From contig JBJKUQ010000014.1 of assembly GCA_045563015.1 (NCBI GenBank), forward strand, positions 11,433-75,432: a stretch of 64,000 nt of DNA. Direction: 5' to 3'. Below the pieces are notes generated by a model that was not told the origin of the DNA, made no database searches, and worked only from the letters and a program-made list of their open reading frames with translations. This DNA comes from Alphaproteobacteria bacterium (lineage in GTDB: Bacteria; Pseudomonadota; Alphaproteobacteria; Methylaequorales; Methylaequoraceae). Of the stretch, positions 11,349-13,478 are shown one piece after another. The stretch's first letter is position 1; each line of letters opens with the position of its first letter. The translations under genes and the position numbers were made by a program.

Positions 11349-11463
11349 GTAAGTGCTTATACACTTATTTAAATCGCTACTAGTTATTATATAAAAAGAG
11401 AAAAATGTGCACATGCACTTAAATAATAATTTTTGTTTGCATATTATAAGTGCGTATACACTA

Positions 11464-12006
11464 TTATTTATCTAATTCTTTTTGATAGTATTTATGAATA
11501 ATCGAGTCCTGGTTTTCTAACAACCAATCTATAGAAGGTTCATTGGCCATAGCTTTTTTAATAGCATTAGTTGTTGCCTTCCTATGAATATCAAAAAGTA
11601 TTTTATGATCTAGACTCTCATCCTTAGCTACTAAAGGGTTTAACCAGACAGAAACTATTATTCCCAAATCATTTGCCCTATCTTTGGGTATATATCCTTC
11701 TTTAACTGAATCTAAAACACCATTAGCAATCGCGCCCTGTACTGTTCCCATTAAAATATTGGTGTATTTATCATCCTTAACTGTAACTTTACTAACCATA
11801 AGGGTTGCTGGCTTTACCATAACATCAGTATTCATTATTGCCAGGACCTTAGTATGGCCTTTGATCTGGTTTCCAATAAGAGTAGCAAAAGCAGTCCCAA
11901 AGGGACCATCTAATTCTCCAATAACTACTTCTGGCTCAGCTGCTGTTCCTGGAGGCCCTCCTGCAACTAAAGACTCCCCAATTTTCATTACAAAACTCTT
12001 ACTCAT
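11464..12006 (-). CDS. Formaldehyde-activating enzyme (Fae) family protein
   Basis: 180 aa. Alignable by eye along its full length to methylotroph Fae: KIGESLVAGG.., VVIG...GP..TAF, KPATLMVSKVTV, GYIPKD.ANDL.IIVSVW. Strong SD (AAAGGAG) 7 nt upstream. Sits 18 nt downstream of the XRE gene. Confidence 0.65.
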   Translation of the reverse strand: MSKSFVMKIGESLVAGGPPGTAAEPEVVIGELDGPFGTAFATLIGNQIKGHTKVLAIMNTDVMVKPATLMVSKVTVKDDKYTNILMGTVQGAIANGVLDSVKEGYIPKDRANDLGIIVSVWLNPLVAKDESLDHKILFDIHRKATTNAIKKAMANEPSIDWLLENQDSIIHKYYQKELDK

Positions 12007-12024
12007 TTATTTTACTCCTTTTTA

Positions 12025-12228
12025 CTAAATCATTTTTTTTAATTTTTTCTTAAGATCTATGGCTTCACAAGCTAATTTGATATATTTTGGAATTTTCACA
12101 TCTTTTTCTCCCTTTTTTCCTTTTTCATAATACTGAATCATCCTTCTTTTTAAACCAAGGGTAATAGCAGCCTCTGATTGAGACAAATTGTGCTTTTTTC
12201 TCCATTTTTTGAATTGCTCTTTATTCAT
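12025..12228 (-). CDS. Small XRE/Cro-type helix-turn-helix regulator
   Basis: 67 aa. WRKKHNLSQSEAAITLGLKRRMIQYYEKG...IPKYIKLACEAI, a typical HTH_3 pattern. Probably co-transcribed with the Fae-like gene. Confidence 0.7.
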   Translation of the reverse strand: MNKEQFKKWRKKHNLSQSEAAITLGLKRRMIQYYEKGKKGEKDVKIPKYIKLACEAIDLKKKLKKMI

Positions 12229-12289: not shown

Positions 12290-12318
12290 TTGACAAATAC
12301 GCAATTGGTGCATATTTT
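12290..12318 (+). promoter_or_regulatory. Candidate sigma70-type promoter for the 12371/12445 ORFs
   Basis: TTGACA (12290-12295), N17, TATTTT (12313-12318). Bracketed by the 8-bp perfect inverted repeat ACGCAATT (12299-12306) / AATTGCGT (12337-12344). Confidence 0.4.
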
Positions 12319-12444
12319 ATAATTATAGTGCGCAAAAATTGCGTGTGGATAAAACTTTGAAAGGATTTATATGCTTGGACATTTAGTATATTGGCAATTT
12401 GTTTTAAACAAAACCAAAACTCAGGGCCAAAAAAAAGTTAATAA

Positions 12445-12744
12445 ATGAATTGGGTGTTAGTTTTCATAACCTTTATTGGACCACTCTATGACTCTGAGGG
12501 TTTTATTAAAGATATTGAAGCAGATATTTCTCTTATACACAATTCGGAAATAGTCTGTACGTACACTTCGACAATTATTAATGGAAAGTTAAAAGCTTCC
12601 CGTAATTTTGAAAATAGTGGAGTAACTCTAGAAAAAGAGATTACCATTTGCTTAACTGATAGTCAGCTTGATTACTTCAAGAAAACATCCAATGATAAGT
12701 TATCTAGTCAAATTGAAATTAATAATATAATCAAGAATTTCTAG
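12445..12744 (+). CDS. Hypothetical 99-aa protein with a hydrophobic N-terminus
   Basis: ORF only, no family recognised. Its start overlaps the stop of a 25-codon upstream ORF (12371-12448) in an ATGA arrangement. Confidence 0.4.
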   Translation: MNWVLVFITFIGPLYDSEGFIKDIEADISLIHNSEIVCTYTSTIINGKLKASRNFENSGVTLEKEITICLTDSQLDYFKKTSNDKLSSQIEINNIIKNF

Positions 12745-12821: not shown

Positions 12822-13478
12822 ATGAAATTATTAACAAAACCAAAACAGCTTCAACGCTGGGAAAAAAAAAATAAAATATCAAATAAAAAATTTGCTAGAT
12901 TAACTGGTCTGGATCCAAAAAAGTTAAGAAGATCCAAGAAATTGCCTAAATTTGTGGGTCTAAGTTGCTTAGCAATTGAAAGCGCCAAAAAGAAATCAGA
13001 TGCAAAAAAAGCCATTAAAGGTTTAAAAAAAAAGAATGCAAACTTAAAAGCTAAAGTTATAAAGTTAAACAAACCTCTAAAAAAACTTGATATATTAAAA
13101 AAGTCAAAAAAAAAATTAGAGAGTAAACTAAAAAAACCAAAAAAAACAATTAGTAAGCTCAAAAATACAAATAAAAAATTAGCGAGCAAACTAAAAAAAC
13201 CAAAAAAAACAATTAGTAAGCTCAAGAACATAAATAAAAAATTAGTGAGCAAACTAAAAAAACCAAAAAAGACGATAAACAAACTAAAAAATAACAATAA
13301 AAAGTTGAATAAAAAAATCAGTTTGATGAAACCCAAGAAACCATCGAAATCGAATAAATTAAAAGCGACAAAGCCAAATGGGTCTCTTGATAAAGTTTCT
13401 GCACAAAATATAAATATAAAAACTGATATCACATCTCCTACTAGTGCAACTAAAAAAGAGGTACCTAGTCAACAATAG
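12822..13478 (+). CDS. HTH protein (paralog of the 12025-12228 regulator) with a long lysine-rich, histone-H1-like tandem-repeat tail
   Basis: 218 aa. The N-terminus (KQLQRWEKKNKISNKKFARLTGLD...LPKFVGLSCLAIESAKKK) aligns with the XRE protein (EQFKKWRKKHNLSQSEAAITLGLK...IPKYIKLACEAIDLKKK). The rest is K-rich, with three 21-aa repeats SKLKKPKKTISKLKNxNKKLx. Strong SD AGAGAGGAAA. Confidence 0.6.
   Translation: MKLLTKPKQLQRWEKKNKISNKKFARLTGLDPKKLRRSKKLPKFVGLSCLAIESAKKKSDAKKAIKGLKKKNANLKAKVIKLNKPLKKLDILKKSKKKLESKLKKPKKTISKLKNTNKKLASKLKKPKKTISKLKNINKKLVSKLKKPKKTINKLKNNNKKLNKKISLMKPKKPSKSNKLKATKPNGSLDKVSAQNINIKTDITSPTSATKKEVPSQQ
13122..13310 (+). repeat. 63-bp x 3 in-frame tandem repeat inside the Lys-rich gene
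   Basis: Units at 13122-13184, 13185-13247 and 13248-13310. Units 1 and 2 differ at only a few positions; unit 3 is more diverged. Confidence 0.9.

Follow-up and report, generated by a model that had tools for sequence, protein, structure and literature searches.

[quoted passage not shown] The coordinates of these genes and of the sequence elements and open reading frames around them are given in Table 1. A G+C-rich intrinsic terminator was sought in the 3' spacer behind the Fae-like gene (11349 to 11463), and none was seen.

Table 1. Genes and sequence elements at the Fae-like locus (positions are those of the window)
Feature	Position	Strand	Basis or remark
3' spacer after the Fae-like gene	11349..11463		AT-rich; imperfect palindromes GTGCACATGCACTTA / TAAGTGCGTATACAC
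Fae-like paralog gene, 180 aa, "E-P-E" clade	11464..12006	-	PF08714, TIGR03126, fold match, tree
Spacer between the XRE and Fae-like genes	12007..12024		18 nt; coding strand reads TAAAAAGGAGTAAAATAA
Shine-Dalgarno AAAGGAG	12015..12021	-	8 nt before the ATG of the Fae-like gene; read from the sequence
XRE-family HTH gene, 67 aa	12025..12228	-	HTH_3, E 1.8e-6, 28.3 bits, cut-off 23
Inverted repeat ACGCAATT...AATTGCGT in the divergent control region, candidate XRE operator	12299..12344	.	Inverted-repeat pair I8
Promoter-like TCCACA-16-TATAAT upstream of the XRE gene	12322..12349	-	Consensus scan, 10/12 matches
99-aa orphan	12445..12744		Ortholog of AG-892-F10.CDS.256
Lysine-rich HTH protein	12822..13478		Ortholog of AG-892-F10.CDS.257

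A Pfam profile search placed the 180-aa product in the Fae family (PF08714), with an E value of 6.8e-60 and a score of 202 bits (cut-off, 27), and the match covers profile positions 1 to 158 of 159, which bears out the whole-length resemblance that the initial annotation had read by eye. The protein also exceeds the cut-off of the NCBIfam model TIGR03126 (135.4 bits; cut-off, 118.05), and its sequence aligns with that of the M. extorquens Fae in PDB entry 1Y5Y (E value of 1.5e-19). An AF2 model of moderate quality (pLDDT 67, pTM 0.70) has entries 1Y5Y and 1Y60 as its best and sole strong PDB matches (E value of 2.6e-12; TM scores of 0.73 to 0.81). The open reading frame is a genuine full-length Fae-family protein with the Fae alpha/beta fold.

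The alignment also confirms an early observation that the histidine motif of Fae is replaced, with AEPEVVIG in the window protein corresponding to AHIDLIIG in Fae. Acharya et al. (2005, J Biol Chem) are said to have proposed His22 as the acid catalyst of Fae, and in the same work the side chain of Gln88 reportedly responds to pterin binding. The column His22-Ile-Asp24 reads H-I-D in 41 of 41 canonical sequences, E-P-E in all 82 sequences of the clade to which the window protein belongs, and M-P-E in a sister clade; the window protein thus has Glu-Pro-Glu where canonical Fae has the proposed acid catalyst together with Asp24. The Gln88 column, in contrast, holds glutamine in every sequence of all three clades.

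These clades were resolved in a maximum-likelihood tree of 63 nonredundant Fae-family sequences. Clade (i), with 100/100 support, is canonical and unites M. extorquens Fae with the other copy found in Methylaequoraceae and with the gammaproteobacterial copies located in gene clusters; clade (ii) comprises M. aquaticum "fae2," a copy from Azospirillum, and the third copy of one gammaproteobacterium; and clade (iii), which stands apart from canonical Fae and is sister to clade (ii) with 100/100 support, contains the window protein. The canonical copies of the family genomes have 72 to 77% identity to M. extorquens Fae, compared with 28 to 34% for the window type (~32% for the window protein). 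Within clade (iii), sequences from TMED127 and from many marine Gammaproteobacteria share 77 to 83% identity, and ~90 columns of a 25-sequence alignment are invariant across the two proteobacterial classes. A homolog search recovered thousands of proteins, the best 120 of which are 80 to 99% identical to the window protein, with ENA, JGI, Logan, and Tara assemblies as their main sources. Members of the E-P-E clade abound in ocean metagenomes, and the clade is under very strong purifying selection. In the tree, the gammaproteobacterial E-P-E sequences (L061 to L117) nest within the diversity of TMED127 (L038 to L060), with L102 and L113 nearest and with 77 to 83% amino acid identity across classes, which hints that the gene may have moved laterally among marine methylotroph lineages. 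One complete gammaproteobacterial chromosome (G042) carries members of all three clades, at C1:1750947, 2677533, and 213943, and its canonical copy adjoins mch.

The short distance between the XRE and Fae-like genes and the strong Shine-Dalgarno sequence in the spacer, both pointed out in the initial annotation, were confirmed, and an AAGGAG-like site precedes the Fae-like gene in all family loci inspected. The two genes are probably cotranscribed. The TTATCCACACGCAA block of the promoter-like site is kept across divergent loci, its assignment as a promoter being by consensus match, and an ACGCAA-N-TTGCG palindrome, conserved in related and divergent loci, overlaps the site and is a candidate operator for the XRE protein. 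With this arrangement, the pair may constitute an autoregulated operon. Among related loci covered in full, 15 have an intact XRE gene directly 5' of the Fae-like gene. An XRE gene also precedes it in L059, where it is cut short by the end of the contig, and C-terminal pseudogene remnants of XRE persist in three further TMED127 loci (L046:5892-5957, L047:662-751, and L048:4082-4114); together, the intact and remnant copies indicate that the pairing is ancestral, older than the genus of the window, and decaying in places. The pairing is specific to TMED127; no regulator or receptor gene adjoins the gammaproteobacterial copies.

The plcP/agt::dgkA and gap/arsJ genes on either side are not on the same strand as the gene pair, whose location between lipid-remodeling and arsenate genes is as first described; the accompanying view that it had been inserted into a Pho island does not survive comparison with other genomes. 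In all TMED127 genomes inspected, the Fae-like gene lies on the opposite strand between pstSCAB-phoU-phoB and porin-phoR, the minimal arrangement being <pstS >fae-like <porin <phoR, and it is the surrounding modules that vary, namely, plcP-agt::dgkA, gap-arsJ-ppk, and a trio of XRE, orf99, and lysine-rich HTH genes. This constant position amid variable modules identifies the gene as a fixed anchor of the region and not an insert. In genomes that lack the XRE gene, the intergenic region next to the Fae-like gene is also the one with the pstS Pho box. In Gammaproteobacteria the E-P-E gene occurs by itself, in no fewer than three housekeeping settings that are unrelated to one another, and an attempt to derive its function from these neighbors (aroE/gamma-CA/ubiA, tadA/DASS/guaA, and cNMP-rhodanese/YajQ/ApbE) was abandoned, as they have no partner in common.

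The source lineage is TMED127 ("Methylaequorales"), a group of streamlined marine methylotrophs. Near-identical copies of the window gene are found in AG-892-K07, AG-899-D02, AG-892-F10, CM1_5m.P40, and MED657, which are SAGs and MAGs of a published study of this group (PMC12542740). According to that study, TMED127 have ~1.5-Mb genomes, are probably obligate marine methylotrophs, and carry a methylotrophy island of ~45 kb that was found in 44 of 64 genomes, the remainder, including members of the genus of the window, having truncated contigs (PMC12542740). HIMB59/AEGEAN-169 was also considered as the source lineage and rejected; papers on that group describe P islands of a similar kind but do not mention genes for methanol or H4MPT metabolism.

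A Fae homolog is present in 39 of 42 Methylaequoraceae species genomes, most of which have two copies. The two-copy genomes encode a canonical protein of 169 to 173 aa that scores ~240 bits and a protein of the window type of 180 to 195 aa that scores ~200 bits; the latter gene lies outside the H4MPT cluster, ~185 kb away on the contigs of relatives that carry both. Mch was detected in 30 of 41 relatives, with 3 of the 4 congeners among them; beta-RFAP synthase exceeded its cut-off in 28 genomes. In one congener (G008), the canonical fae belongs to an H4MPT cluster with Mch (401 bits), FhcD (404 bits), FhcB- and FhcC-like proteins, an MptN-like ligase, a dihydropteroate-synthase-like protein, and DUF447, among others, and in G015 a PQQ alcohol dehydrogenase and pqqBCE precede this cluster. 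The pattern extends to the Gammaproteobacteria, where each of the five genomes tested, of which three are complete chromosomes, has a canonical fae beside Mch and the E-P-E copy elsewhere. Mch is also encoded by 47 of 50 further E-P-E carriers, the three exceptions being small assemblies of 0.8 to 1.1 Mb; this brings the total to 52 of 55 and shows that the E-P-E paralog travels with the H4MPT pathway.

The source assembly itself (1.1 Mb in 24 contigs, 75.9% complete, 29% G+C) contains a single Fae-family gene. Profile searches for Mch, FTR, the MtdB-type N-domain, Mpt_N, and beta-RFAP synthase gave no match in the window or anywhere in this 75.9%-complete assembly, in agreement with the initial annotation that the window holds no H4MPT gene. 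Once the check is widened to the genus, the outcome is divided: the pathway is missing from the assembly and present, as judged by canonical Fae together with Mch, in three of four congeners. Comparison with G015 locates the discrepancy at contig ends. Positions 216.0 to 240.6 kb of G015 are collinear with contig C18 of the source assembly down to the first bases of C18. At its start, C18 crosses a tRNA gene and extends 34 codons into the first gene of the G015 segment from 240.8 to 283.5 kb, and G015 from 283.5 kb onward is collinear with source contig C15, which begins inside an epimerase gene that abuts the methylotrophy island in both G008 and G015. The ~43 kb of G015 between the equivalents of C18 and C15 is the methylotrophy island, with XoxF, PQQ, H4MPT, and lanthanide uptake genes. 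An island that falls between two contig ends breaking inside collinear genes points to an assembly gap, since a deletion would have joined the flanks, and the congeners and contig breaks together suggest that the source cell carries a canonical fae and the H4MPT genes. Three other assemblies (G017, G018, and G041) were examined as potential natural orphans and discarded: G017 also lacks the flanking ispH, and the contigs of G041 and G018 stop right after ispH and 3 kb beyond it, respectively, indicating assembly gaps.

Two premises of the initial annotation are thus not supported. The gene was called an orphan, whereas the family genomes carry a canonical Fae and an H4MPT island at whose borders the source contigs break, and it was assigned to a "SAR11-type" cell with folate-linked C1 oxidation, whereas the lineage is TMED127, with a full H4MPT/XoxF/PQQ island (PMC12542740). 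The locus most likely does not represent a cofactor-less Fae in a SAR11-like cell; it belongs to a known methanol oxidizer whose island was probably missed by a draft assembly. Nor is the gene an ordinary Fae, which the initial annotation had named as the alternative in case a full pathway exists elsewhere in the genome: ordinary Fae is encoded by another gene, and the window gene falls in a distinct paralog clade. Automatic annotation names both copies "formaldehyde-activating enzyme," which is an overcall for the second copy.

To place the gene in an expression context, we used published data in which 35 Sargasso Sea surface metatranscriptomes were mapped onto the SAG AG-892-F10 (PMC12542740, Table S5). 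The ortholog of the window gene in this SAG, AG-892-F10.CDS.254, is 83% identical and has the same neighbors (XRE, the orf99 homolog, the lysine-rich protein, and agt::dgk). Its mean expression was 209 TPM, ~23-fold below that of canonical fae (4751 TPM), compared with 351 TPM for XRE, 2159 TPM for the porin, 158 TPM for plcP, and 18,147 and 12,096 TPM for two divergently transcribed neighbors. Across the 35 samples, the Fae-like transcript correlated with that of XRE (Spearman rho of 0.43, p = 0.01) and hardly with those of the porin (0.11), plcP (0.04), or canonical fae (0.15), while porin and plcP correlated with each other at 0.85. The Fae-like transcript is therefore low, tracks XRE, and does not follow the surrounding Pho genes. 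The orthologs of the 99-aa orphan and of the lysine-rich HTH protein (CDS.256 and CDS.257), with means of 18,147 and 12,096 TPM, are among the five most transcribed nondiel TMED127 genes in the Sargasso Sea and are restricted to TMED127 (PMC12542740); their transcripts covary (rho of 0.85), and that of the lysine-rich gene correlates with gap at 0.73.

Set against the Fae of M. extorquens AM1 (1Y5Y/1Y60; EC 4.2.1.147), the window protein is alike in its full-length family match, its fold, and Gln88, but it is only ~32% identical, belongs to a separate clade, and has Glu-Pro-Glu for His22-Ile-Asp24; furthermore, canonical Fae is encoded in the H4MPT cluster, whereas the window gene lies outside it and has a far less expressed ortholog. 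A noncanonical Fae paralog group, the methylotrophic lineage, and an ortholog listed as "fae" (PMC12542740) are already known. In that study, CDS.254 appears as "fae, formaldehyde activating enzyme," with MexAM1_META1p3356 as its AM1 homolog, in the supplementary Table S5 only and is neither discussed nor told apart from canonical fae (PMC12542740). The nearest parallels are Fae2 and Fae3 ("groups 2-4") of Methyloversatilis universalis FAM5, Methylotuvimicrobium alcaliphilum 20Z, and Methylobacterium aquaticum 22A, which are likewise noncanonical and occur beside a canonical Fae (PMC5023235, PMC11748545, PMC3728764); M. aquaticum fae2 belongs to the sister clade of the window type and not to the same clade. 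Knockouts of Fae2 and Fae3 had no growth defect, and M. alcaliphilum fae3 failed to complement an AM1 fae mutant (PMC5023235, PMC11748545), which together argue against simple redundancy with Fae. Methyloversatilis Fae3 was induced ~12-fold on methylamine, sensing or regulatory roles have been proposed for Fae homologs (PMC3728764), and a tetrahydrofolate-linked role has been modeled for a Fae homolog in M. alcaliphilum (PMC11748545). An equation of the E-P-E clade with Fae3 or with MexAM1_META1p3356 was considered and dropped; a literature search turned up no text that names the tag.

We consider it likely that the window gene encodes a second, divergent Fae-family member of a TMED127 methylotroph that also has a canonical Fae and the H4MPT pathway; its role may be an accessory one linked to H4MPT. 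In such a cell, methanol would be oxidized by XoxF and formaldehyde would pass through the H4MPT pathway, and the Fae-like protein, in which the Fae fold and the pterin-contacting Gln88 are retained, may bind the same pterin and act, alongside the main Fae and at low flux, on formaldehyde or on a C1 adduct related to it. Glutamate may act as the acid/base in place of His22. In the genus of the window, a promoter with a conserved palindrome would drive the gene together with that of a small XRE repressor, and the place of the Fae-like gene inside the phosphate island would reflect inherited synteny and not Pho control. As to the more specific proposal within this identification, that of an accessory protein that binds H4MPT and uses glutamate as acid/base, our preference is tentative and follows from the conserved fold, Gln88, the co-occurrence with the pathway, and the strong purifying selection. 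It is also possible, although we place limited confidence in it, that the proteins of the E-P-E clade are a distinct type, linked to H4MPT but unlike Fae in chemistry or role, which might handle another aldehyde or C1 adduct, shuttle C1 between folate and methanopterin, or sense formaldehyde.

The main rival to an H4MPT-binding accessory is a noncatalytic protein, a sensor of formaldehyde or pterin or a regulatory partner that works with the XRE repressor. His22 is lost in both noncanonical clades (to Glu or Met), the sister-clade gene of Azospirillum oryzae follows directly on a chemotaxis receptor gene, Fae homologs have been suggested to sense or regulate before (PMC3728764), and the tight XRE linkage and low expression in TMED127 would suit such a function; yet glutamate can act as an acid/base, the invariant pterin-contact glutamine and ~90 further invariant residues over two classes fit a precise active site, the gammaproteobacterial copies lack any regulator or receptor neighbor, and no protein-protein or DNA-binding feature is visible, and we judge this explanation unlikely. 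Loss of the methylotrophy island from this strain, leaving a true orphan that uses tetrahydrofolate or a thiol as acceptor, would account for the missing Mch, FTR, MtdB-type, and RFAP synthase matches in the 1.1-Mb assembly and could draw on the tetrahydrofolate-linked homolog modeled in M. alcaliphilum (PMC11748545). It is nevertheless very improbable given that the contigs on both sides of the island break off within collinear genes and are not joined, that three of four congeners have the island and 52 of 55 clade carriers have Mch, and that truncated island contigs are reported in the same genus (PMC12542740). We give hardly any credence to membership in the Pho regulon, by which phosphate starvation would induce the gene to remove formaldehyde released by P scavenging or lipid head-group breakdown: although all TMED127 genomes inspected have the gene between pstS and porin-phoR and, where XRE is absent, it shares an intergenic region with the pstS Pho box, its ortholog does not follow the porin or plcP over the 35 metatranscriptomes in which these two follow each other, it is on the opposite strand, and its gammaproteobacterial counterparts sit in unrelated housekeeping contexts.

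Being abundant, associated with the pathway, and expressed in situ, the marine E-P-E clade offers a clean test case for the role of noncanonical Fae paralogs. If the protein does have a distinct role, it would be one shared at ~80% identity by the main methylotrophs of the oligotrophic ocean, TMED127 along with several lineages of Gammaproteobacteria, and in TMED127 it would be tied to an XRE repressor.

Relatives of the gene occur on plasmids as well. Plasmid pLVM1 of Methylobacterium sp. strain DM1 (L125, 508-9041) carries a 67%-identical E-P-E gene after gmaS and the N-methylglutamate synthase genes mgsABC and before a globin gene, and this proximity to gmaS recalls the methylamine-induced Fae3. 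GmaS did not exceed its cut-off in any of 42 TMED127 genomes, the source genome included, and a methylamine/NMG link was rejected as a general account. Upstream in the pLVM1 locus are genes for an oxidoreductase and a hypothetical protein, which may resemble a heme-dependent N-demethylase. On a plasmid of Azospirillum oryzae (L129, 3236-5522), the M-P-E Fae-like gene begins 38 nt after the gene for the methyl-accepting chemotaxis protein, and genes for a glycine-betaine binding protein and a Rieske oxygenase are nearby.
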